From Promethearchaeota archaeon (GTDB taxonomy: Archaea > Asgardarchaeota > Lokiarchaeia > Sigyniarchaeales > SOKP01): DNA of 64,000 nt. This document shows, in pieces, positions 9,148 to 22,467 of the stretch. The notes under the pieces were generated by a model that saw only the letters and a program-made list of their open reading frames with translations, was not told the origin of the DNA and did no database searches. The stretch lies in contig JBHLOC010000006.1 of the NCBI GenBank assembly GCA_048940925.1, positions 1 to 64,000 of the forward strand, in the 5' to 3' direction. Each line of letters begins with the position of its first letter. Within the stretch, counting starts at the first letter, position 1. Both the position numbers and the translations under genes were made by a program.

Positions 9148-10782
9148 CTATTTAGGTATTAAGAAAGTAAAATTACTTCCTTTAGTATAATCTTCTTTTA
9201 TACGATTTTCTACCCAGATTTTTCCATTATAACTATTAATGATTTTTTTTACTAAAGATAAACCTATCCCCATCCCTCTTACGTGAGTATCCTTTTTATA
9301 TCCTTTTTGAAATATTAATTTTTTGTTTTTGTTAAGAATTCCTATCCCATTATCTAAAATTTCAACCTTATAATTAAATATCCCATTAGTTTTCGCTTTT
9401 GAAATATTAACTTGTATTTTTACTACTGAATTTTTATTATACTTTATTGCATTATAGAGCAAATTTTCAAATACATCTAACAATAATTCATTTGCATTTA
9501 CAAACACTTTTTCATTCAATTTTTTTATTTTTATATCTAATTTCTTATTTCGGACACTTTTTCGTGCAAATAAGATTGCTTCATCTATCATATCATACAG
9601 ATCAACTTTTTGTAATGAAACTTCTGATTCCTCAAGTTTAGACAACTTTCTTACATTGTCTATTAATTTTGATCCTCTACTAATTTGGTTTTTAATTATG
9701 TTAAAAATATCGTCAGATTCCTCTAATTTACTATCATCATTTCTCAACATTGATAATAGTTCAGCTGAAAACTGAATATTATGAAAGATATTATTCATAT
9801 CATGCGTGAAAATATCTTTATAAAAATTAGCACGCGTAAAAGCTTCACGGTACATATGTTCTGATTTTTTTAACTCTTGTTCAGCATGTTGATGTTCAGT
9901 TACATCTCTAAAACTCCATAGACGCCCTATTATTTTACCATTGCGAGTTATTGGACAGGAATATTGATCAAAAATTCGTCCATCCTTGAATATTAGCATA
10001 TCAAAAACATTTCTGGATGTTTTTATTAAGTTATCAATTTTTTCCTTAAAAAGTTCAGGATCTTTAAGTTGGTTAACAATATTATCAATTAATAAACAAA
10101 AATCCATTTTCTCAACAACCGCGTCAGGAACTCGCCACATATAGATGAATCTAGCATTTATTTGAGTTATATGCCCATCGTTATCAATAGCTACAATACC
10201 TTCAGCAATTGCTTCAAAAATCGCCCTCAGTAATTCTTGATTTTCTCGTAAAGCATTTTCTGCTTCTATTCGATCAAAAGTATTTTCCAGGATTTCTGAA
10301 AAAATCCTTAATATTGCAAAATCTTTACCCATCCATTGTATCCTTTCTGAAATCTTGCTAAAACACACAAATCCAGTTAATTTCAGTTTTTGATAGATTG
10401 GAAATCCTAAAAAGCATTTTATATCTTGAAATTCCATAAAATTTTTTGTGAGGGTTGCATAGATAGGTAATTTCGAAACATCTCTTATGTGAATAAAACT
10501 CAATTTTTCAATTTGATTAATCCACCATTTAATTGTATTAATGTCAACTTTTCTAAGATTTTGTATTTGAGAATTAATTCCTTCATTACACCACTCATGT
10601 GTGTTTATTAAAAAGTCATGATTTTTATTAAGGAGGAACATAGAAACTCTATCTGCTCTAGATAAATTACCTAAATCACGAAGAGATGAGTTTATTGCTT
10701 CATCAAGATCAATTTTGCCCACAAATCTGGAAGAAATTGCTGAAATTACTTTTTCAAAATTTAATCTTTTCTCTAATGACAA
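9148..10782 (-). CDS. GAF-PAS sensor histidine kinase
   Basis: THEWC GAF, PAS ending SFRDVTE, H-box FTHDMNN, N-box ENLLYNAIKY, DNGIG, GMGIGL. Confidence 0.9.
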   Translation of the reverse strand: MSLEKRLNFEKVISAISSRFVGKIDLDEAINSSLRDLGNLSRADRVSMFLLNKNHDFLINTHEWCNEGINSQIQNLRKVDINTIKWWINQIEKLSFIHIRDVSKLPIYATLTKNFMEFQDIKCFLGFPIYQKLKLTGFVCFSKISERIQWMGKDFAILRIFSEILENTFDRIEAENALRENQELLRAIFEAIAEGIVAIDNDGHITQINARFIYMWRVPDAVVEKMDFCLLIDNIVNQLKDPELFKEKIDNLIKTSRNVFDMLIFKDGRIFDQYSCPITRNGKIIGRLWSFRDVTEHQHAEQELKKSEHMYREAFTRANFYKDIFTHDMNNIFHNIQFSAELLSMLRNDDSKLEESDDIFNIIKNQISRGSKLIDNVRKLSKLEESEVSLQKVDLYDMIDEAILFARKSVRNKKLDIKIKKLNEKVFVNANELLLDVFENLLYNAIKYNKNSVVKIQVNISKAKTNGIFNYKVEILDNGIGILNKNKKLIFQKGYKKDTHVRGMGIGLSLVKKIINSYNGKIWVENRIKEDYTKGSNFTFLIPK

Positions 10783-11048: not shown

Positions 11049-12209
11049 TTGGACTCAATGGAAGAGTTAACTAAAAAACAAACTGAAAAAGGCATTAAAA
11101 AATTCACTTTACAAGAATTTGGAGGTGCTTTTGGAGATTGGGGAACCTTAATTCCATTTGTTATTGGATATATCTCAATTGTGGGTTTAAGTCCAGCAGG
11201 TATTTTTCTCACTTTAGGTATTACTAACATCATATTAGGGATCAAATTTAATTTACCTTTACCAGTGCAACCGCAGAAAACAATTGGAACAGTGGCAATA
11301 TCGGAGAAATGGAAACCTAATATGGTAATTTCTACTGGTTTTGGAACAGGAATAGTATGGTTACTTCTTGGTTTTTCCAAAAAACTTAATTATATAGTGA
11401 GTAAAATTCCTATTATTGCGGTAAAGGGAATACAAATGGGTTTAGCATTAATCCTAGGATGGGCAGGAATTTTATTGTTTGGTGAGAATTTAGCCTTAGG
11501 ATTTATCTCAATATTGATTATAATAATTTTAATAAAAAATAAACCAATTCCATCTGCAATTATCCTTACATTCACCGGAATTTTCATCACATTTTTTACT
11601 GGCGTTATTAATATTTCAGAATTGAAATTTGGGATACCAAAGTTAGCATTTCAAGTACCTACATGGGAGAACTTTTTATTAGGTATGCTTTATGCAGGAA
11701 TTGCTCAATTATTTTTAACTTTAACAAATGTGATGGTTGCTACTATTGTTTTAATCAAAGAACTATTCCCCGATAGAAAAGGAATTGATGCAAATACTTT
11801 AGCTTTTAATATGGGTGCTATGAATTTAATTAATCCTTTTTTTGTTGGTATGCCTTTATGTCATGGATCGGGAGGATTAATGGCACAATATGCTTTTGGA
11901 GCCAGGACAGGTGGTTCTATGATATTAGAAGGTATAATGGAATTAATACTTGGTTTATTTTTTTCTCAGACTCTATTTCTACTTTTTACAGAGTTTCCAA
12001 TGGCAATACTAGGTGCGATGCTTATTTATATTGCATTTTTATTAGGAAAAATAGCTTTGAAAGATTTTAATATAAAATCATTTCCAATAATATTAATTTC
12101 CGCAATTACATGCTATTTTATAAATATAGCATTGGGTTTCTTAATCGGGTTAATATTATATATAATTTTTAAGAAATTAATTGATAAACCTAAAAATCAA
12201 ACCCTATAA
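11049..12209 (+). CDS. molybdate/sulfate transporter, MOT1 family
   Basis: EFGGAFGD.GT.IP, LP.PVQP.K.I, GMP.CHGSGGL.AQY.FGART. Confidence 0.85.
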   Translation: MDSMEELTKKQTEKGIKKFTLQEFGGAFGDWGTLIPFVIGYISIVGLSPAGIFLTLGITNIILGIKFNLPLPVQPQKTIGTVAISEKWKPNMVISTGFGTGIVWLLLGFSKKLNYIVSKIPIIAVKGIQMGLALILGWAGILLFGENLALGFISILIIIILIKNKPIPSAIILTFTGIFITFFTGVINISELKFGIPKLAFQVPTWENFLLGMLYAGIAQLFLTLTNVMVATIVLIKELFPDRKGIDANTLAFNMGAMNLINPFFVGMPLCHGSGGLMAQYAFGARTGGSMILEGIMELILGLFFSQTLFLLFTEFPMAILGAMLIYIAFLLGKIALKDFNIKSFPIILISAITCYFINIALGFLIGLILYIIFKKLIDKPKNQTL

Positions 12210-12333
12210 ACTTATTTTTTAAATTATTAATTGAATTTTATGTGATTTTATCTAATTACTATTTAAATAGAGTTTTTTTTATAATTTAAACGAAAAATTC
12301 TTTTAAGTATGAAAGCAAATATTCATATTAGAT

Positions 12334-13044
12334 TTGATCATGGGTGATTTTATGTTATTTTCACAAAATGAAATGGAGAATTTAAAAAGAGAAATGAGTA
12401 AATTAAAAGAAAAAGTCATACTTAAACTTTTTACTGATTATAAAATACAAACAGATGGGACAAAAGTAAGAAGATGTATGGCTTGTGAAGGAACATATGA
12501 ATTACTTAAAACTCTAGAAAATGTAGCTGAAGGAAATCTAAAAATTGAAGAAATTTCTACAGAAGAAAATGAAGACGAAGCTAAAAGATTTAATGTAGCT
12601 AAAGTACCTGCCATATTATTTGTAGATGAAAATAATCGAGAAATCATTCGATATTTAGCATATCCAACTGGATCCGAATTTGTACCTTTTCTTAATAGTA
12701 TACAATATTTTTCAGGAGTAAGACCATTTTATACAGATCAAATCGTTAGTCATCTTAAAAAGATAGAGAAGTCAAACATGAAAATCTTTATAACTCCTAC
12801 ATGTCCATATTGTCCAGCAACAGTTCCAGTTTTAACACTATTCGCGATTGTTTCCAAAGGTAAGATTAAAGCTGAAATAATTGATGTTAATTTAAATCCA
12901 GATATTGGAATGAAATACCAAGTTCAAAGCGTTCCTCACACAGTTATTAATGAAAAAGATCATATTTATGGAATGTTCACTCCTCAAGATTTGCTGGATA
13001 AGCTTACTAAAGGAAAAAGAGATTTTGGAGGTATGTATGCATAA
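12334..13044 (+). CDS. protein disulfide oxidoreductase (PDO, two thioredoxin folds)
   Basis: CMAC and TPTCPYCP active sites, VP cis-Pro loops. Confidence 0.85.
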   Translation: MIMGDFMLFSQNEMENLKREMSKLKEKVILKLFTDYKIQTDGTKVRRCMACEGTYELLKTLENVAEGNLKIEEISTEENEDEAKRFNVAKVPAILFVDENNREIIRYLAYPTGSEFVPFLNSIQYFSGVRPFYTDQIVSHLKKIEKSNMKIFITPTCPYCPATVPVLTLFAIVSKGKIKAEIIDVNLNPDIGMKYQVQSVPHTVINEKDHIYGMFTPQDLLDKLTKGKRDFGGMYA

Positions 13045-13067
13045 GTATTATAAGGTGATATTAAATT

Positions 13068-13751
13068 ATGTCTCAAGATGATAAATATCGAGAAATAATA
13101 AAAAGGGAGATGGCAAAACTAAAGAAACCTGTTAAATTGAAGGTGTTTACTTGTAAAGAAAAACAACCAAATGGAAGTCAGATAAGGGAGTGTATGGATT
13201 GTAATCAATTTATGGAGTTTCTAAGGATCTATGAAGAAAATTCTAATGGAATGTTAACAATTGAAGAATTATGTATTGATGAAAACCCGGAATTTGCGAA
13301 AAGGTATGATATTTCAAGAGTACCTACCATCCTATTTGTCGATGATCAAGGAAGAGAAATCATACGCTATTTAGCAGCACCACAGGGTGGTGAGATTCAA
13401 CCTTTCATACAAGCATTATTTACTTTTGCTGGAGCTCCTAATTATTATGAAGCAACGATAAAGCAAAACTTAAACAGAATTTCTCCTTCTACAATAAAGG
13501 TCATGATGACACAAACTTGTCCATATTGTCCCCAGGTGATTTCAACCTGTAACTCGTTTGCTCTTGCATCTGGGGGGAAAATTAGAAACGTAGTGATTGA
13601 CATTCAAGCAAATCCTGATATTGGACAATATTATGATGCTGCTGGTGTTCCCTATACTATTATAAATGATCAAAAGACATTAGTTGGAATGGTTGGACCA
13701 AATGAAATATTAAGAGCTTTAATTGGGGGAAATATACGTGTTCAATATTGA
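13068..13751 (+). CDS. protein disulfide oxidoreductase (PDO), tandem paralog
   Basis: CMDC and TCPYCP; strong similarity to upstream gene (VP.ILFVD...REIIRYLA.P.G.E). Confidence 0.85.
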   Translation: MSQDDKYREIIKREMAKLKKPVKLKVFTCKEKQPNGSQIRECMDCNQFMEFLRIYEENSNGMLTIEELCIDENPEFAKRYDISRVPTILFVDDQGREIIRYLAAPQGGEIQPFIQALFTFAGAPNYYEATIKQNLNRISPSTIKVMMTQTCPYCPQVISTCNSFALASGGKIRNVVIDIQANPDIGQYYDAAGVPYTIINDQKTLVGMVGPNEILRALIGGNIRVQY

Positions 13752-13752
13752 T

Positions 13753-14682
13753 ATGGAAGGTTTAGATTTAGAAAAAATTTATGATCTTATCATTTTGGGA
13801 GGAGGTCCTACTGCAATCGGTTGTGCAATTTATGCAGCGCGATTTGCAATGGATGTATTAATTATTGGTAAAACATTTGGAGGTTTGATTGCCACAACTC
13901 ATATTGTTGAGAATTATCCTGCGATTACATCCATAAGTGGCCAAGGTTTAATGGATATGTTTAAGGATCATATGGATTCGCTTAACATCCCATATATTTC
14001 AGATGAGATTAGGAGTATTGAAAAAGTAGATGATCACTTTGAATTACGTTCTTTTTTTCAAAATTTTAAAGCTTTTTCAATATGTATAGCAACAGGTTCA
14101 GAAAGGAGGAAACTAGGTATTAAAGGCGAAGAAGAATTTGCTGGGAGAGGTGTATCTTATTGTGCAACCTGTGATGGCCCATTTTATAAAGATAAAGTTG
14201 TTTGTGTTATTGGTGGGAGTGATTCTGCTGCTAAAGAAGCATTGTTCTTAGCTCAAAACACTCAAAAGGTCTACATTATTTATCGTGGAAGCGAAATACG
14301 CGCTGAACCAATAAACAAGAAAAGAGTTTACGAAAATGATAAAATAGAAATAATATATAATACAAATATTGTCGAAATCAAGGGTGATAATACAGTACAA
14401 TCTGTTATTTTTGATAATGGAGAAAAATTGAAAGTAGATGGAGTATTTATTGAAATAGGGTCAAATCCTAATTCTAAACTAGCAAAACGTATTGGGGTTA
14501 AAGTAAATGAAAAAGAGGAAATTATAATTAATCGTAAATCAGAAACAAGCATTCCAGGTATATTCGCAGCAGGTGATGTTGCAGATGCGCCATTTAAGCA
14601 AGCAATAACCGGAGTTTCAGAAGGAGTTATTGCTGCCTATTCTGCATTTGATTATGTTAAGGAAATGAATATAGAATATTAA
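13753..14682 (+). CDS. trxB: thioredoxin reductase
   Basis: GGGP, VENYP, GRGVSYCATCDG, IGGSDSA, GIFAAGD; probable start ATG 13753, just after the PDO stop. Confidence 0.92.
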   Translation: MEGLDLEKIYDLIILGGGPTAIGCAIYAARFAMDVLIIGKTFGGLIATTHIVENYPAITSISGQGLMDMFKDHMDSLNIPYISDEIRSIEKVDDHFELRSFFQNFKAFSICIATGSERRKLGIKGEEEFAGRGVSYCATCDGPFYKDKVVCVIGGSDSAAKEALFLAQNTQKVYIIYRGSEIRAEPINKKRVYENDKIEIIYNTNIVEIKGDNTVQSVIFDNGEKLKVDGVFIEIGSNPNSKLAKRIGVKVNEKEEIIINRKSETSIPGIFAAGDVADAPFKQAITGVSEGVIAAYSAFDYVKEMNIEY

Positions 14683-14727
14683 TAAGATTTAATTTACAAA
14701 AAATTAAAATAGAAATAAAAAAATAAT

Positions 14728-15036
14728 TTATTCGATATTTACTTCTACACTATGAAACTCGGGTTCTTGAAAAGGAACTTCAACTTTTAAGAGTCCATTT
14801 TTATATGAAGCTTTTGCTTCTTCAGGTTTTATAGGACAGCACACCGCATATGTTCCTATATAAATTGTATCCTCAGTCTCTCCTTTAATGAAGAAACTAT
14901 CATCGTGCATTTTGAGTTTAATTGTATCCTTTTCAACCCCAGGTAATTGAATTTCAATTTTATATGTACTATGTTCATCATCAGCCCAAGCACACATTTC
15001 TGGGGATGTTAATAACTTATCTTCTTCTTTAGTCAT
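14728..15036 (-). CDS. small heat-shock protein (Hsp20/alpha-crystallin)
   Basis: LPGVEK..I.L and A.Y.NGLL.V.VP motifs. Confidence 0.85.
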   Translation of the reverse strand: MTKEEDKLLTSPEMCAWADDEHSTYKIEIQLPGVEKDTIKLKMHDDSFFIKGETEDTIYIGTYAVCCPIKPEEAKASYKNGLLKVEVPFQEPEFHSVEVNIE

Positions 15037-15227: not shown

Positions 15228-16142
15228 CTATTGAATATAGTATAAAAGTGAGTCAGTAGATAATATGTCTAGTATCTTTTCCCAATATTCTTTTATTTCC
15301 CAATCTTGTTTATCTTTAATTTTTTCCGAAATCTCTTTCATTATTTGCTTAATTTTGAGTGAATTAAAATAAGTTAAATTTGAAGAGATTACAGATAACA
15401 TATATTGCTTTTCACCATATCTTTCATTTTCCTCTGGATACGAATCAAAATATATATACCCTTTTTCATCGATGTTTTCAATATTCAATAAGAAACCTTG
15501 AGCTTTGGTAATTTTATCATGTCCATAAATAGAAGTTACTGCCTGGAATAATTGCATGCCTAATATATCTATTGAAATAGTAAAATTTTCATCAGAAGGA
15601 AAATATTTATTTATTACTGGCCCCATAACATCATCCCAATACACATATAGTAAATAAAGGTTTCGTTGATCTTTATCTGGAGTAGAAGATTGCATTTCAA
15701 TCTGGAGGGAGGATAATTGTTGTGTAAATTCCCTATCAATAAGATTAGCTTTTTGATAACGAGCAATTTTACCTGAGATAATTGCCATTAAATCTTCTTT
15801 TTTAAAGGGTTTTGTTATATAATCATCAACACCTAACATTTTCCCTAATCGAATATCATCAGGAGTAGATTTTGCAGTTAAAAATAAAAAGGGGATTCGA
15901 CTGGATTTAGGATCATTGGAAAGAGCTTTAAAAAATTCATAACCGTCCATTCTTGGCATCATTATGTCGCTAATGATTAAATCAGGAAGTTTTTCTAATT
16001 CTGACATAATTTTTAATGCTTCTTTACCATTTAGTGCAGTTAATACTTTATATCCATTACTTTCCAATAGGAATCTTAAATGAAATAATATATCTTCATT
16101 ATCATCAACTATGAGTATCACTGATTGAGATACATTTTGCAT
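15228..16142 (-). CDS. response regulator: receiver domain plus C-terminal longin/uDENN-like domain
   Basis: Receiver ILIVDD, DLIISDIMMP (phospho-Asp), LTAK, DDYITKPF; C-terminal LLYVYWDDVMGPVI...ERYG...YMLSVI suggests a longin fold (inferred). Confidence 0.85.
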   Translation of the reverse strand: MQNVSQSVILIVDDNEDILFHLRFLLESNGYKVLTALNGKEALKIMSELEKLPDLIISDIMMPRMDGYEFFKALSNDPKSSRIPFLFLTAKSTPDDIRLGKMLGVDDYITKPFKKEDLMAIISGKIARYQKANLIDREFTQQLSSLQIEMQSSTPDKDQRNLYLLYVYWDDVMGPVINKYFPSDENFTISIDILGMQLFQAVTSIYGHDKITKAQGFLLNIENIDEKGYIYFDSYPEENERYGEKQYMLSVISSNLTYFNSLKIKQIMKEISEKIKDKQDWEIKEYWEKILDILSTDSLLYYIQ

Positions 16143-16203
16143 GCTATTACTCTAAGAAATCTTATTTGGAAAATATCAAATAAAATTATATTTAAATTTC
16201 GTT

Positions 16204-18381
16204 TTAAATATTATCTATTCTTGGAAAAAATATCGAAAATGTAGTGCTTTTCCCTAATTCACTTTCAACATAGATTTCACCTTTATGAAGATGGATAATT
16301 TCTTTCGCAATTGATAAACCTAGTCCAGTTCCAGAAATTTCTCCTGCATTAGAAGCTCGATAAAATCTTTCAAAAAGATGAAGAAGATCTTCTTTACTAA
16401 TTCCTATTCCATGATTTTTAAATTGAAATAAATTCCCATTTTTTCCTTTAGGATTAAATCTTCCTTGGTAATTTTCAATCACATTTATCTTGATAATTGT
16501 ATTTTCATGTGAATATTTTATTGCATTATCAAGAAGAATTCGAAAAACTTGATCAATCCTTTTAATGTCCCCTTTCATATTGATATTTTTATTACTATCA
16601 ATTTGAAAAGTAAGGTTTTTTTCTTGAGCAAAAGGAGTAAAGAATAATTCCATATCTTGTAATAGTTTTAAAGGATTAAAGTTTTCTAAATTAAGCTCAA
16701 TCTTTTTTTCATCAATTTGAGAGAGCATGAGAATATCTTCTGATAAGTCTTTAAGAATTGAAATGTTCCTTTCTTCTATCTCAATAATATTGTTTTGTAG
16801 TTCAGGGGTTAGTGAATCTTGCTTTTGCTTGAATACATCTAAAGACATCATTAGAACAGTTATAGGTGTTCTCAATTCATGAGAAACTGTCGATACTAAG
16901 TTTTTAATTCTTCTTTCTGCTAAAATTCTTTCTGTGATATTAAGACCATATATATTAAGATATTGTTTTTCAGTTATAGGTGTTATAGTAAACGAGTAAA
17001 ATTGATTATTTAGTTCAAGCTCAAATTGTTGAATTATTTGAGTATGAAAGACTTCTTCTACTACATTTTCTAAACTAAGTGGTATATTATTCCCAATCTC
17101 AATATTAAACAATTTTTGACCAGCATCATTTATATATAGGACAATTTCATTACTAACTCTCAATATTGGATTTGGATTCTCCGAAGGAAACTTTGCTAGA
17201 CTCCTAATTTCTTCTTCTGCTTTTTTACGTTCAGTAATATTTCGACCAACTGCAACTATATAATTAATATCTTCTTGATCATTCGTAATAACTGATCCTA
17301 AATATTCAAAAGGTATCTTTTTTCCATCCTTCGTAATTAAGTCCATTTGAACTGTAGTATTACCAGTTTCGAATGCATTACGTATAGCCTCTTGAGCTTT
17401 TATTAAATCTTCTTGACTGTAATAAGAATCAGGTGCTTTCATAGATAATATCTCCTCATCACTATACTCGCTGATCTCATTAAAAGCTTTATTCCATCTT
17501 ATCGCTTTACCGTTTTTTGGATCAAACACGAAGAAAGTATCCATTTGAGTATTTAATGCAGTTGTCGTAAATTGCTCACTCTCTTTTAGTCTTGTGAATA
17601 ATATATTTAAGGGATCTTCAAGTCCCTTTTTGATAATTGCTAAATAAATGAGATAAAAAGAGGTTATCTTAAAGAGATGACCTATTATAATAGATAGGTC
17701 ATAAACACCGACATAGAGAGTAAAAGCTAACTCCGCTGCCATAATTAATAAAATTGAAAACATTTTCAGATAGAACGTTGTTAAATTGAGCTCTTTTCTA
17801 TTTTTATATAATATTATCATAGATACGGCTAAAATTCCAATAATTATATATTCGCTGATTATCTTAAACTCGGTAAGACCAATCCCTTCAACATAACAAA
17901 CTGGAAAAAGCCTTGCGAAAATTAATATCACCAAAAATGTAGTAACTACTGTATATCCAATTACCAGGTGATTTGGATTAACTTTTTTATGCATTAAAAG
18001 AAATGCCATGAGAAATGAGCCTGCTTGAAGATATCTAGCAGCGATCCATAATTGAGTTGGTAAATTTGCGTCATATCCTACAAATATAGTTATCCCACTA
18101 TATGCTAATGTATGGATTAGATCAATTGAGCCAATATACAATAAACTAACCCCCAGAACTAAAAATATTGAGCTCTCTATATTTTTTCGAGTATTCCAGC
18201 CAATTACGAAAATTCCAAATGCTATAACAATACTAAATAATTCAGCAATTGTATGAAATAGAAGAAAACTATAGAAGTTTGTTAGGTAAATAAAAAATAA
18301 TATTAAAGTAAAAACAATTATAGATGATTTAATTTTGTATCGCCTTGGAATTTCTTTTTCTGCTTCTTGCGACACAAGCAT
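16204..18381 (-). CDS. MASE3-PAS sensor histidine kinase
   Basis: N-terminal multi-TM LFHTIAELFSI...D..HTLAY.G...QLWIAAR (MASE3), PAS domains, SHELRTP H-box, LLDNAIKY, FERFYR, GTGLGL. Confidence 0.9.
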   Translation of the reverse strand: MLVSQEAEKEIPRRYKIKSSIIVFTLILFFIYLTNFYSFLLFHTIAELFSIVIAFGIFVIGWNTRKNIESSIFLVLGVSLLYIGSIDLIHTLAYSGITIFVGYDANLPTQLWIAARYLQAGSFLMAFLLMHKKVNPNHLVIGYTVVTTFLVILIFARLFPVCYVEGIGLTEFKIISEYIIIGILAVSMIILYKNRKELNLTTFYLKMFSILLIMAAELAFTLYVGVYDLSIIIGHLFKITSFYLIYLAIIKKGLEDPLNILFTRLKESEQFTTTALNTQMDTFFVFDPKNGKAIRWNKAFNEISEYSDEEILSMKAPDSYYSQEDLIKAQEAIRNAFETGNTTVQMDLITKDGKKIPFEYLGSVITNDQEDINYIVAVGRNITERKKAEEEIRSLAKFPSENPNPILRVSNEIVLYINDAGQKLFNIEIGNNIPLSLENVVEEVFHTQIIQQFELELNNQFYSFTITPITEKQYLNIYGLNITERILAERRIKNLVSTVSHELRTPITVLMMSLDVFKQKQDSLTPELQNNIIEIEERNISILKDLSEDILMLSQIDEKKIELNLENFNPLKLLQDMELFFTPFAQEKNLTFQIDSNKNINMKGDIKRIDQVFRILLDNAIKYSHENTIIKINVIENYQGRFNPKGKNGNLFQFKNHGIGISKEDLLHLFERFYRASNAGEISGTGLGLSIAKEIIHLHKGEIYVESELGKSTTFSIFFPRIDNI

Positions 18382-18492
18382 CTTATTTGAATTTGAAATT
18401 TTATTATTCTTAAATTATATTTAATATTTTTTCTATAATATTAAAAAATTCTTACATATTAAAAAAAGTTGAAATTTATTACTGAAAATAAT

Positions 18493-19041
18493 TCAACTAA
18501 TTGTAAATTTTTCAAAAATAGCGTATATTGCTGTTTTATGAATCGAATAAATAAATTCTGGAGGAATAGTCTCTTTTAATTTTTTTATAAAATCATTAAT
18601 AACTTTTTCATTAAACTCATCATCGTATTCCAAATCGGGGTCAAATTTGTGTAGAAAAATAGAAAATTCGATGTTATTCTTTTTGTTAATTGAATTTATC
18701 ACTTTATTCAGATATGTAAGTGCGAGTTGATAACGCTTGACGTTTTGTATATCAATTACATATATGATTTTATTCGTACCCTTTACAAGACTTTTAAAAT
18801 CATTAAAGTAATCATCAAGATAAGCTTGCTGGCCACCAAGATCCCAAATCGTATATTTTGAATTTAAAGCTTCAAAATTTTGGATATCAAGACCTCTCGT
18901 GGGTTTTGGAGAATTAAATGCAGAAATACGCTTAATTCCTTTCAGACAGCTTAAAATTGAAGTTTTTCCGCTATTATCTAATCCTATCAATAAAATTTTT
19001 ATGGATTCTTCTTCAGAACCATTGGTATTTAAATTCTTCAT
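18493..19041 (-). CDS. Arf/Rag-like small GTPase (eukaryotic signature protein)
   Basis: G1 GLDNSGKT, G2 PTRG, G3 WDLGGQ, G4 HKFD, G5-like TAIY. Confidence 0.9.
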   Translation of the reverse strand: MKNLNTNGSEEESIKILLIGLDNSGKTSILSCLKGIKRISAFNSPKPTRGLDIQNFEALNSKYTIWDLGGQQAYLDDYFNDFKSLVKGTNKIIYVIDIQNVKRYQLALTYLNKVINSINKKNNIEFSIFLHKFDPDLEYDDEFNEKVINDFIKKLKETIPPEFIYSIHKTAIYAIFEKFTIS

Positions 19042-19084
19042 ACTTAGTTGAAAAGAACTTTAAATAGTTAAATTTTCCAATGAG

Positions 19085-19420
19085 CTAAGATAATGTATCA
19101 TGAACGTCAACATCTCTAATATCCTTAAACTTTTCTTTATAAATATTTCCTACTATTGAATTAATATCAGAGAGTAGAGTAAAAATATCAGTATTTTTTA
19201 TTTTATAATATTTGATATTAGCTCTTTTCTCATAATCTATTAGATTGTTTTCAAAAAGCATATTAAGATGTTTAGAAACTGTTGATTGAGAGATTCTTAA
19301 TAATTTTTGAATTTCTGATGAATTCTTCTTACTGTTTTTTAATAAATCCAAAATTTTTAGTCTAGTTGGATGTATCAGTACCTTTAAGAACTCAATAGTA
19401 TATTTTCTTAATTCACTCAT
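19085..19420 (-). CDS. ArsR/SmtB family transcriptional regulator
   Basis: LKVL.HPTRL.IL..L, ISQSTVS.HL..L winged HTH. Confidence 0.88.
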   Translation of the reverse strand: MSELRKYTIEFLKVLIHPTRLKILDLLKNSKKNSSEIQKLLRISQSTVSKHLNMLFENNLIDYEKRANIKYYKIKNTDIFTLLSDINSIVGNIYKEKFKDIRDVDVHDTLS

Positions 19421-19531
19421 TGATTTATTAGAAGATTCTTTTTACTAGTTTTTAAAGCTTTTTTTAATGGTTTATTAATGTTAATTTAATAATAGAAGAA
19501 GATAAAAAGATTTAAATATGATGGTATCGTA

Positions 19532-19620: not shown

Positions 19621-20133
19621 ATGATAAGTGAAAAAATCGGAATTGATGATATTGATTGTAAAATAATGGAATTAATTCAAAAAGAACCAAACTTAACTCA
19701 TACTGAAATTGCAAGTTATGTAAATCGTAGTCAACCTACTGTAGGAATGCGTATTAAAAAACTTGAAAACTTAGGTGTCTTAAAATATCAGGCTGGTATA
19801 AACATTAAAGTGGCAGATCTCTGCTTTGCTCGGGTAGAACTTCAAACAAAGAATCCAAAAAAGGTTATTAACATAGTAAAAAATTGCCCATTTATGTTGA
19901 ATGCCTTTAGATTAAGTGGTGATTCAAATATGTGTATTCTAATTGTAGGTTTACATTTTAAAGATTTAGATCACATTGTTAATTATCATTTTCGAAATGA
20001 TCCTGACGTTATTGATGCGCGTATTGACATTATCTCTGAGGTTATAGAAGATTTTGTTCTACCAATACATTTAAATTTTGAATTTGGAGAATTAAATATA
20101 CAGAACCATTGTTGTGAAAAATGTACTTGTTAA
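19621..20133 (+). CDS. Lrp/AsnC family regulator with Cys-rich tail
   Basis: D.ID..I...IQ..P...H.EIA....RSQP.V..RIKKLE HTH, RAM domain; tail HCCEKCTC. Confidence 0.88.
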   Translation: MISEKIGIDDIDCKIMELIQKEPNLTHTEIASYVNRSQPTVGMRIKKLENLGVLKYQAGINIKVADLCFARVELQTKNPKKVINIVKNCPFMLNAFRLSGDSNMCILIVGLHFKDLDHIVNYHFRNDPDVIDARIDIISEVIEDFVLPIHLNFEFGELNIQNHCCEKCTC

Positions 20134-20164
20134 TTTCCTTCTATTTTTTTAAGACTTTTTTTAT

Positions 20165-20407
20165 TTAATCTATAGTTATTGCTTTACTTTTACAAGCTGT
20201 AGTGCAAATATGGCATTTTACACAGTGTTCTTCTCGATCTTTTACCACAGTACATTTAGGTTTAGAATTTTTATTTATTACTTTATAAATTCCCCTAAAG
20301 CAGGCTTCTTCACAAGAAAAATTTTTACATTCAGAGCATTTTAAAGTATCGATATGATGAAATTTGTAACTTTCAATAGTAGTAAGATCACCTGCTTCAC
20401 TCATCAT
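20165..20407 (-). CDS. 4Fe-4S ferredoxin
   Basis: CSECKNFSCEEAC and CVKCHICTTAC. Confidence 0.8.
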   Translation of the reverse strand: MMSEAGDLTTIESYKFHHIDTLKCSECKNFSCEEACFRGIYKVINKNSKPKCTVVKDREEHCVKCHICTTACKSKAITID

Positions 20408-20526
20408 GATTATTCAAATAAAATACTCTTTTTATCTATTAAGGTTATATTCTATAACAAAATCTCTTAATTTTGAATGGATATTTGATATTAATATAAT
20501 CGATTTATAGTTATAAACCATGTTTT

Positions 20527-21195
20527 ATGAGTCATACTAAGACACCTCTTTTTAACATTCCGAATTTAATGAAAGGTGAATTTATAGCACGACCAAATAG
20601 ATTTACTGGAGAAATCAAGTTCAAAGGAAGCATTGAAACAGCTCATATTCATGATCCTGGTAGGTTAAAAGAATTACTTATTGAGGGGGCCGAAGTACTA
20701 TTCACGTATTCGAAAGGGAAATTAAAATATTATATTAAAGCAGTAAAGACAGATATTGAATGGGTACTAATTGACACAGCACTTCATTCTAGAATCGCTC
20801 AAAAGGTATTTAATTTTTTACCTGAATTTTCAGAAGTAAAAGAAATTAAGAAAGAAGTGAAAATAGGCAAAAGTCGTATTGATTTTCTTTTAGATGATGT
20901 CCCCTTGGAAGTAAAGGGAGTCACATTGGTGAAGGATGGGATTGCATTATTTCCCGATGCTCCAACTGAACGAGGAGCTCGACATGTAGAGGAAATTATT
21001 AAACATAATGGTATACTTCTATTTTTAATTTTTCGGAAGGCTGAAAGTTTTGCACCAAATAAAAAAATGGATCCAAATTTTTCACAAAAATTAAGTAAAG
21101 CCAGATTGAAAAACATAAAAATTATTCCAATTCAAATTAGTTTTGATGGTAAAATGATTTTTTATAATAAACCAATACCAATATCTGACTTTTAA
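20527..21195 (+). CDS. sfsA: SfsA family DNA-binding/nuclease protein
   Basis: RPNRF, H.HDPGRL.EL, SRIDF, EVKGVTL, FPDAPT.RG.RH. Confidence 0.9.
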   Translation: MSHTKTPLFNIPNLMKGEFIARPNRFTGEIKFKGSIETAHIHDPGRLKELLIEGAEVLFTYSKGKLKYYIKAVKTDIEWVLIDTALHSRIAQKVFNFLPEFSEVKEIKKEVKIGKSRIDFLLDDVPLEVKGVTLVKDGIALFPDAPTERGARHVEEIIKHNGILLFLIFRKAESFAPNKKMDPNFSQKLSKARLKNIKIIPIQISFDGKMIFYNKPIPISDF

Positions 21196-21277
21196 TAATA
21201 GAATTGATTATTTATAAATAGATAAATTTGATAAATTATTTCTTTACATAAGGTAAATAATTTATTTTGGGATTATT

Positions 21278-21817
21278 GTGATTTCTGATAAATTAAAACT
21301 AGATGAGATTGATAGACAAATTATTTCTCTAGTACAAGAGAATCCAGCCCTTACACATACGGAGATTGCTACAAAAATAAATCGTAGTCAACCAACGGTT
21401 GGGATGCGCATTAAAAAGCTCGAAAAAAATGGTGTCTTACAATTCCAGCCAGGTATCAACTTCAAGAAAGTTGACTTATATTTAGCAACAGTAGAAATTC
21501 AAACAAAAAATCCAGAAGAAATACTTGATATGGCTCGTTTCTGTCCTTTTATGCTTAATGCATTTCGTTTAAGTGGTGATCATAATGTGTGTATATTACT
21601 TGCGAGTTCTAAACTCGATAAGTTAGATAATATTGTTAATTACCACTTTAGGAATAATCCATTGATCTCAACAGTATCTATGGAAGTAATTATTGATATA
21701 GCTAAGGATTTCATTCTGCCAATTGATTTTGATTCAGAAGACCATGACCCAACAATAGAAGAAGGTTGTGGTCCTAAATGTAAATTTAAAATAGCTAAAG
21801 CTCAGGGTTTAGTTTAA
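21278..21817 (+). CDS. Lrp/AsnC family regulator with Cys-containing tail
   Basis: Close paralog of 19621..20133; tail GCGPKC. Confidence 0.88.
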   Translation: MISDKLKLDEIDRQIISLVQENPALTHTEIATKINRSQPTVGMRIKKLEKNGVLQFQPGINFKKVDLYLATVEIQTKNPEEILDMARFCPFMLNAFRLSGDHNVCILLASSKLDKLDNIVNYHFRNNPLISTVSMEVIIDIAKDFILPIDFDSEDHDPTIEEGCGPKCKFKIAKAQGLV

Positions 21818-21900
21818 TATATTCATATATGAATTTCCCTTGTATATTGAAATATGTTTCTCGTAGAATAAGAATTGTAAAATAAAAGTATATGATTTAC

Positions 21901-22467
21901 TTATTCCTCAATTTGCTGATCAAATTTAAATTTAGGTAGATCATCCCTCATATTACACTCTGGACCACAATACCTCCCATCAAAATTTTCGATTTGAAAA
22001 TCAATTGGGACAACAAAATCATGAATCGATTCGATTAAGATATTAGTTTTGACATTAATAACATTATCATCGCGCCTAAAACATAAATCTACTAATTTTT
22101 CAATTGTTTGAAGATTCGAGGCTGCAATAAAGCAAAGGACATTAAATTCACCAGAGATTTTAAAGGCATGATTAACAAATGGACATTTTTCAACTTTATT
22201 AACAATATTTTCAACATCTTTAGTAGAAATAAATACAATCGCAACTTTAATATCAACTTTTTTAATATTAAAGCCCACTTGTTTAGTAAGTAAATGTTTT
22301 CGTTCTAACTTGATGATTCGGGCACCTACAGCAGGCTGAGACTTTTCTATCTCCTTAGCGATATCACTATGAGTGATATCGGGATTTTTTTCAATCATTT
22401 CGATGATTTTTTTATCATCGTTATCAATTGATAATAATTCATTAAAACTTTTTTTCTTCATTTCCAT
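21901..22467 (-). CDS. Lrp/AsnC family regulator with Cys-containing tail
   Basis: HS.IA..I.KSQPAVGARI.KLE, CPFV..AF.ISG; tail CGPEC. Confidence 0.85.
   Translation of the reverse strand: MEMKKKSFNELLSIDNDDKKIIEMIEKNPDITHSDIAKEIEKSQPAVGARIIKLERKHLLTKQVGFNIKKVDIKVAIVFISTKDVENIVNKVEKCPFVNHAFKISGEFNVLCFIAASNLQTIEKLVDLCFRRDDNVINVKTNILIESIHDFVVPIDFQIENFDGRYCGPECNMRDDLPKFKFDQQIEE

Follow-up and report, generated by a model that had tools for sequence, protein, structure and literature searches.

What does a two-component system regulate when its response regulator ends in the kind of domain that eukaryotes use to control small GTPases, and when a small GTPase gene is encoded alongside? The question is raised by a four-gene cassette in the genome of a Promethearchaeota archaeon (Lokiarchaeia, an Asgard lineage; assembly GCA_048940925.1, contig JBHLOC010000006.1, positions 1 to 64,000; this 64,000-nucleotide stretch is called the window below). 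The four open reading frames (ORFs) lie on the minus strand and span 15228-19420 in the order ArsR – GTPase – MASE3-PAS histidine kinase – receiver-longin regulator, with intergenic gaps of 43, 111 and 61 base pairs (bp), which agrees with an initial annotation made from the letters alone. We lean towards the view that the regulator is a phosphorylation-gated GTPase-activating protein (GAP), predicted to act on the neighbouring GTPase as the output of the two-component system. The features on which the argument turns are the following.

19085..19420, minus strand: ArsR/SmtB-type winged-helix transcription factor, 111 amino acids (Pfam HTH_5, E 2.5e-13; NF033788, above cut-off)
18493..19041, minus strand: tail-less Rag-like small GTPase, 182 amino acids (Pfam Arf 1.5e-20, Gtr1_RagA 4.6e-19)
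16204..18381, minus strand: membrane sensor histidine kinase, 725 amino acids (MASE3 1e-78, PAS, HisKA and HATPase_c; Pfam/NCBIfam)
15228..16142, minus strand: response regulator, receiver plus longin, 304 amino acids
15777..16142, minus strand: receiver domain, regulator residues 1-122 (Pfam Response_reg, E 6.9e-28, residues 9-122)
15968-15966, minus strand: codon of the phospho-acceptor Asp59 of the regulator
15228..15680, minus strand: longin domain, regulator residues 155-304, the sole output (AlphaFold, Foldseek, VIA-align and profile match)
15618..15638, minus strand: W169-D170...G174-P175 loop of the longin, conserved among homologues and with the C9orf72 spacing
15420..15422, minus strand: Arg241, candidate arginine finger, in the strand 4-5 loop

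The response regulator and its longin domain

The receiver is intact, as first annotated: besides the Response_reg match it has the acidic pocket (D13, D14), the phospho-acceptor D59, T89 and K111. All five positions are conserved among 59 homologues, D59 and T/S89 each being found in 59/59 and K111 in 58/59. The C-terminal ~180 residues beyond it match no Pfam or NCBIfam family. An AlphaFold model of residues 155-304 (118 homologues; pLDDT 88.9) has the secondary structure strand – strand – helix – three strands – two helices, the same order that had been read by eye from the last ~150 amino acids, and the longin fold proposed at that stage is upheld by the structural comparisons. In Foldseek, the check that had been suggested, the best matches are FLCN-FNIP2, GATOR1 and a Lokiarchaeal roadblock-longin. 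VIA-align gave Z scores of 14.2 to the Loki longin 8YQG, 12.0-12.6 to Lst4, 12.8 to 6NZD_H (rmsd, root-mean-square deviation, 2.4 over 130 aligned residues) and 11.3-11.6 to C9orf72-SMCR8 (7O2W); these outscore TRAPP, DENN and roadblock proteins, by a margin that is not wide. A DNA-binding or GGDEF output was rejected, since the tail folds as a longin, and here too the early view that no DNA-binding output is present was right.

The glycine-proline (GP) motif noted earlier after a hydrophobic strand is indeed there, just before strand 2, and W169, G174 and P175 are each over 90% conserved (W169 in 114/118 homologues, G174 in 111/118, P175 in 109/118). The spacing of W169-D170...G174-P175 equals that of C9orf72 W33-D34...G38-P39, in the numbering and motif definition of PMC12290439, where the GP motif is reported as specific to GAP-type longins; in C9orf72 these W-D/G-P residues are required for Arf1 GAP activity. 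The second signature is R241, present in 90/118 homologues of the wide longin family. Its counterpart in eukaryotic proteins was sought by a two-step profile alignment, because the longin profile searched directly against the PDB and Pfam gave no significant match; Pfam NPR2 and Folliculin searches of the genome also gave no match, with the controls equally silent. Asgard proteins above the Pfam Folliculin cut-off were therefore collected and aligned, and their longin profile was matched to that of the regulator (probability 96.7, E 3e-10), with both the GP and the arginine columns aligned. When the PDB was searched with the same Asgard folliculin-like profile, its invariant arginine landed on human folliculin R164 (E 1.7e-4), a proven arginine finger (PMC9473554). 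At the sequence level R241 thus aligns with the folliculin finger, transitively via Asgard intermediates and not by direct superposition.

The regulator stops with the last helix of the longin (residue 304), so that the C-terminal DENN module is absent, and no second longin is encoded in the cassette. One other family member was found in the genome, a paralogous receiver-longin on contig C77 (L001:9469-10344), which has the GP motif, lacks the arginine finger and lies among oxidoreductase-like genes; it might form a heterodimer as the non-catalytic partner, much as FNIP or C9orf72 do. Alternatively, because a single domain here carries both a C9orf72-type W-D face and a folliculin/SMCR8-type arginine, a homodimer could do the work of the two eukaryotic longins. 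A bolder form of this idea, which we consider unlikely, is that His-Asp phosphorylation dimerises this one longin, docking face and finger together, as a homodimeric forerunner of the two-longin GAPs, which would switch off the tail-less GTPase, whose state ArsR would read in turn. Longins of the regulator type also occur in a ~645-residue protein family of another Asgard family, where they are N-terminal and followed by TPR repeats (L088:8225-10156 and L089:7969-9885).

A tail-less Rag-like GTPase

The neighbouring GTPase has a full set of nucleotide-binding motifs: G1 at 20-27, Thr48 of G2, G3 at 66-71 with Gln71, the His131-Lys-x-Asp of G4 and G5 at 170-173. Throughout its subfamily H131, K132 and D134 are invariant, and T170, I172, Y173 and the switch residues Thr48 and Gln71 are kept in at least 90%. 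The initial annotation had called it Arf/Rag-like. The first half of that label fits less well, as the protein has neither Gly2 nor an N-terminal amphipathic helix (residues 1-10 of the model are disordered), even though G1 and G3 are Arf-like; the second half fits better, since G4 and G5 are of Rag type (His-Lys-x-Asp and Thr-x-Ile-aromatic) and the best PDB match, by sequence (E 3.5e-22) as well as by structure (37% identity), is LokiRagO (8YL2). An assignment to ArfR was rejected on the same grounds, ArfR structures scoring below LokiRagO. Rag-like is thus the better name, but this is a tail-less relative of LokiRagO and not a canonical Rag. The C-terminus comes 9 residues after G5, the roadblock domain is missing as it is in the whole subfamily, and residues 170-182 are non-helical in the model, that is, helix alpha5 is absent. 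A frameshift or assembly error was rejected as the cause: the GTPases of more than 50 homologues stop at the same place, and they therefore form a genuinely tail-less subfamily. The idea that ArsR necessarily supplies the missing helix was also rejected, because tail-less GTPases are found without ArsR. A complex prediction with two ArsR, the GTPase, GTP and Mg scored 0.24 against a mark of 0.32, which counts neither way. At four other loci (L125:5727-7920, L123, L127 and L131) a tail-less GTPase is followed by a gene for a longin-like protein of 130-147 amino acids, read as such by eye as it has no Pfam match and, again by eye, without the GP and arginine motifs; at L125 the pair is repeated in tandem after a gene of ~770 codons.

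A truncated GTPase raises the possibility that the longin binds it as a docking platform, exchange factor or effector and is not a catalytic GAP at all, providing in trans the roadblock/longin domain that is part of the same chain in full-length Asgard Rag-like GTPases, and perhaps covering the place of helix alpha5. Several observations suit such a role: the GTPase lacks both that helix and the C-terminal domain of LokiRagO, the plain longin-like genes just mentioned accompany other tail-less GTPases, the nearest ESM Atlas structure is a 341-residue Promethearchaeota GTPase fusion (TM 0.81), and most longin/roadblock dimers are exchange factors or platforms (PMC10933270). It is hard to see, however, why a platform would keep an exposed loop arginine at the folliculin finger position in 90/118 divergent homologues, together with the GP motif, and we hold this explanation to be rather improbable.

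The sensor kinase

The kinase consists of MASE3, PAS, a second PAS-like segment, HisKA with His501 and an intact HATPase_c domain, and its H, N and G boxes are conserved across the cassette kinases. By hydropathy MASE3 has about 7 hydrophobic segments, with conserved H43, H90 and H235; these histidines and the neighbouring thioredoxin-type genes hint at redox or cofactor sensing. The kinase-regulator gap is 45-90 bp in most of 42 loci. At L048 the MASE3 kinase gene is split into two ORFs (272 and 523 amino acids) by a frameshift or an assembly error. A second histidine kinase of 544 amino acids (PAS, HisKA, HATPase_c and, by eye, a probable GAF-like N-terminus) is encoded at 9148-10782 of the window, on the same strand and 4.4 kilobases (kb) downstream of the cassette. 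No regulator adjoins it, it is found at several related loci, and it could be a second input to the cassette regulator.

Conservation of the gene order

Comparing gene order across Asgard genomes had been proposed at the outset, and the order proves to be conserved: ArsR – GTPase – kinase – regulator is found in 46/58 named Promethearchaeota-type loci, and of the other 12, two show GTPase – kinase – regulator and ten stop at a contig edge, so that no informative locus conflicts. The full order is also present in 28/36 informative best-hit loci. The longin was found in 85/301 Asgard genomes searched and in 59/68 of the host family, and the range of the GTPase subfamily within this family is nearly equal to that of the longin. 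As the genome holds about 108 GTPase-like ORFs, the background rate of proximity matters: a GTPase gene of any kind lies within 4.5 kb of 17% of its genes, one of the cassette subfamily within that distance of only 0.35%.

Because the loci compared come from related genomes and are not independent samples, rearranged cases weigh more. At L077, L092 and L181 the GTPase and regulator genes are adjacent with no kinase between them, and at L180 they are convergent. At L069, L073 and L074 the regulator comes first and is followed by a GTPase of a different short-GTPase clade. These cases bear on the suggestion that the cassette is simply a co-regulated merger of an ArsR-GTPase and a kinase-regulator module, with the longin a true GAP for some other cellular GTPase. 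Each presumed half does exist separately (ArsR-GTPase alone in at least a dozen loci, kinase-regulator alone at L059, L078 and L189), outside the family the regulator adjoins GTPases of other kinds, Rab-like or long ones (L061, L072, L076, L081), and the genome offers its many GTPases as targets. Yet GTPase and regulator stay together despite loss of the kinase or rearrangement (L092, L180, L181), and where the two-component genes have been lost the GTPase has decayed (see below). We regard such a merger as distinctly improbable.

In two loci of another kind (L090:5762-9151 and L091:6290-9193) a single polypeptide joins a longin, an Arf-like GTPase, a GP/arginine longin, PAS-PAS and a histidine kinase, a case of a GTPase with a candidate GAP domain in cis as the input to a kinase. 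Here the longin-GTPase-longin segment occupies the usual input-domain position upstream of PAS-PAS-kinase, and the cassette encodes no demonstrated GTPase effector; perhaps, then, the signal runs backwards, and the nucleotide state of the GTPase, read via the longin, controls the phosphorylation or localisation of receiver and kinase. In the cassette, though, the longin follows an intact receiver, where an output domain normally stands, and the kinase comes with a membrane sensor of its own, which makes this direction of flow very unlikely in our opinion.

Natural loss of the module

The interpretation that the longin acts on the neighbouring GTPase gains from what has happened at a paralogous locus. 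In the same genome a Lrp-ArsR-GTPase locus (contig C82, 8426-9344; L002:7427-8345) has no two-component genes. In three genomes the corresponding locus has the kinase, with the regulator visible in two, and the GTPase is intact. In eight genomes the GTPase has lost the G2 threonine and the Gly-Gln of G3, and in 7/8 of these the kinase and regulator are shown to be absent. The degenerate proteins, including that of C82, keep the P-loop and G4, and their ORF is retained intact in the eight genomes; by their motifs they are candidate pseudo-GTPases. The eight form one clade, so that the loss counts as one event: at the paralogous locus, the switch residues of the GTPase have decayed in the lineage that lost the kinase and regulator.

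A second correlation concerns the finger itself. In a set of 60 longin genes the arginine is present in 52 and missing from eight. A GTPase gene lies within 4.5 kb of 42/52 of the former, and 6/8 of the latter have no detected GTPase gene in about 16 kb; of the remaining two, one is 3.6 kb from a Ras-family gene with an unusual P-loop and one is beside an intact GTPase. This is only suggestive, because the tree needs just two changes to explain it.

How the cassette may work

Taken as a phosphorelay that ends in a GAP, the cassette might operate as follows. The MASE3-PAS kinase would sense a membrane or cytoplasmic signal and autophosphorylate on His501. From there the phosphate would pass to Asp59 of the adjacent regulator, as the intact motifs and fixed adjacency suggest, and phosphorylation of Asp59 would, by analogy with receivers in general, alter the availability or dimer state of the longin. 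The longin, possibly as a homodimer, would then act as a GAP on the neighbouring GTPase, while the cassette is probably under the transcriptional control of ArsR and of the candidate operator next to the TATA-like box.

A number of considerations weigh against a catalytic role on this particular GTPase. In eukaryotes a longin GAP depends on a second longin subunit, and the cassette encodes none. Sequence identity between the regulator longin and eukaryotic GAP longins is only 8-13%, the mapping of R241 onto R164 is transitive only, and the non-catalytic longins (Lst4, TRAPP, DENN) also rank high in VIA-align, where the top match, 8YQG, has no arginine. The genome, with its about 108 GTPase-like ORFs, offers other targets. 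Pairs of ArsR and an intact GTPase exist without two-component genes (L126, L136, L137, L140, L186), the arginine-less regulator of L077 directly adjoins an intact GTPase, and about ten arginine-bearing regulators have no GTPase nearby; both correlations described above rest on one to three evolutionary events. Finally, the searchable literature contains no Asgard longin with shown GAP activity or an assigned GTPase.

ArsR, the promoter region and neighbouring genes

Upstream of the cassette lie two further features.

19450..19478, minus strand: candidate promoter, with an inverted repeat (19464-19478) and a TATA-like box (19450-19456)
19621..20133, plus strand: divergent Lrp/AsnC-family regulator (Pfam HTH_AsnC-type)

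The ArsR protein scores 68.6 bits against NF033788 (cut-off 55), contains no cysteines and ends in an acidic extension that is conserved (D105, D108, L110). In 41 loci an ArsR gene immediately precedes that of the GTPase; 36/41 of these orthologues lack cysteine, and only one of their histidines is moderately conserved. The inverted repeat YTAAT-N5-ATTAR occurs in 25/41 upstream regions, as against 0.9 (maximum 5) in shuffles, always 5-7 bp upstream of a TATA-like box (7 bp in the window), and is a probable operator for ArsR or for the divergent Lrp. A sigma-70 promoter and terminator scan, which is unsuited to archaea, gave nothing above shuffles. The Lrp gene accompanies the cassette, being divergent to ArsR in most full cassettes.

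The upstream flank (19621-22467) contains three Lrp/AsnC paralogues with cysteine-rich tails, a small ferredoxin and an SfsA-like gene. Downstream (11049-15036) are a molybdate-transporter-like gene, two thioredoxin-fold genes, a thioredoxin reductase-like gene and Hsp20; these neighbours accompany the cassette in no more than part of the host genus.

Comparison with known systems

The initial annotation knew of no description of such a coupling, which was too strong a statement. Liu et al. (bioRxiv 10.1101/2020.10.19.343400, Fig. 5c) report many Asgard proteins in which an NPRL2-like longin is fused to two-component domains, and these authors proposed that two-component systems drive eukaryote-type regulators. 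Their fusions, like our regulator, join an NPRL2/folliculin-type longin to two-component domains in Asgard archaea; their text assigns the fusions no operon, cognate kinase or target GTPase and puts no catalytic residue to the test. More recently, Asgard longins that have a GP motif plus an arginine finger were put forward as possible GAPs, the GTPase partner being left open (PMC12290439, Traffic 2025). Those longins are homologous to that of the regulator, by the profile match given above, but are described without a receiver or a named GTPase partner. Literature searches, mostly outside subscription journals, on the cassette, on LokiRagO and LokiRagM and on MASE3 ligands turned up no description of the four genes together or of the GTPase as a partner.

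The eukaryotic longin GAP complexes and their clients are FLCN-FNIP (RagC/D), NPRL2-NPRL3 of GATOR1 (RagA/B) and SMCR8-C9orf72 (Arf1). With these the regulator has in common the longin fold, the GP motif, an arginine at the finger position, the W-D spacing of C9orf72 and a putative client of Rag/Arf type. It differs in being a single chain with both motif halves on one domain, in having a receiver in place of the DENN module and in having no second longin subunit in the cassette; and its control, as proposed here, would be by His-Asp phosphorylation, whereas the eukaryotic complexes respond to lysosomal amino-acid sensing. For the GTPase, the closest solved G-domain relatives are LokiRagO (8YL2) and LokiRagM (9M28/8ZLA), which are longer (342-385 residues) and have a C-terminal domain.

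In its logic the cassette recalls the actinobacterial conservons (CvnA-D; PMC13621833, PMC13343842), which combine, in four genes, a sensor kinase, a small GTPase and a GAP, in their case of the roadblock superfamily. The conservon GAP is of the roadblock/MglB type, the GTPase is Ras/MglA-like, the fourth protein is of the DUF742 type and no receiver-GAP fusion occurs among the four core proteins; with a longin for the roadblock, ArsR for the fourth protein and a Rag-like GTPase, the cassette falls outside the conservon definition. In the MglA-MglB-RomR system of Myxococcus a receiver protein regulates a small GTPase, again with a roadblock (MglB-type) GAP and a Ras/MglA-like GTPase. Both likenesses are analogies and not homologies of the system.

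According to Tran et al. 2024 (PMC10933270), the genes for Asgard GTPases and for their regulators do not as a rule share an operon, which makes it hard to pair a GTPase with its regulator. The cassette names a candidate pair, both proteins being small and soluble (182 and 304 residues), with a predicted catalytic residue and a predicted switch at Asp59, for which the natural loss-of-function variants are ready controls. Should the GAP activity be real, the arginine-finger mechanism of folliculin, GATOR1 and C9orf72 would predate the eukaryotes and would have been under bacterial-type two-component control. The domain fusion and the wiring idea are already known; what the cassette adds is a constant partner, a GTPase subfamily without the tail, an arginine placed by alignment, the joint decay of the two halves of the module and the candidate operator.

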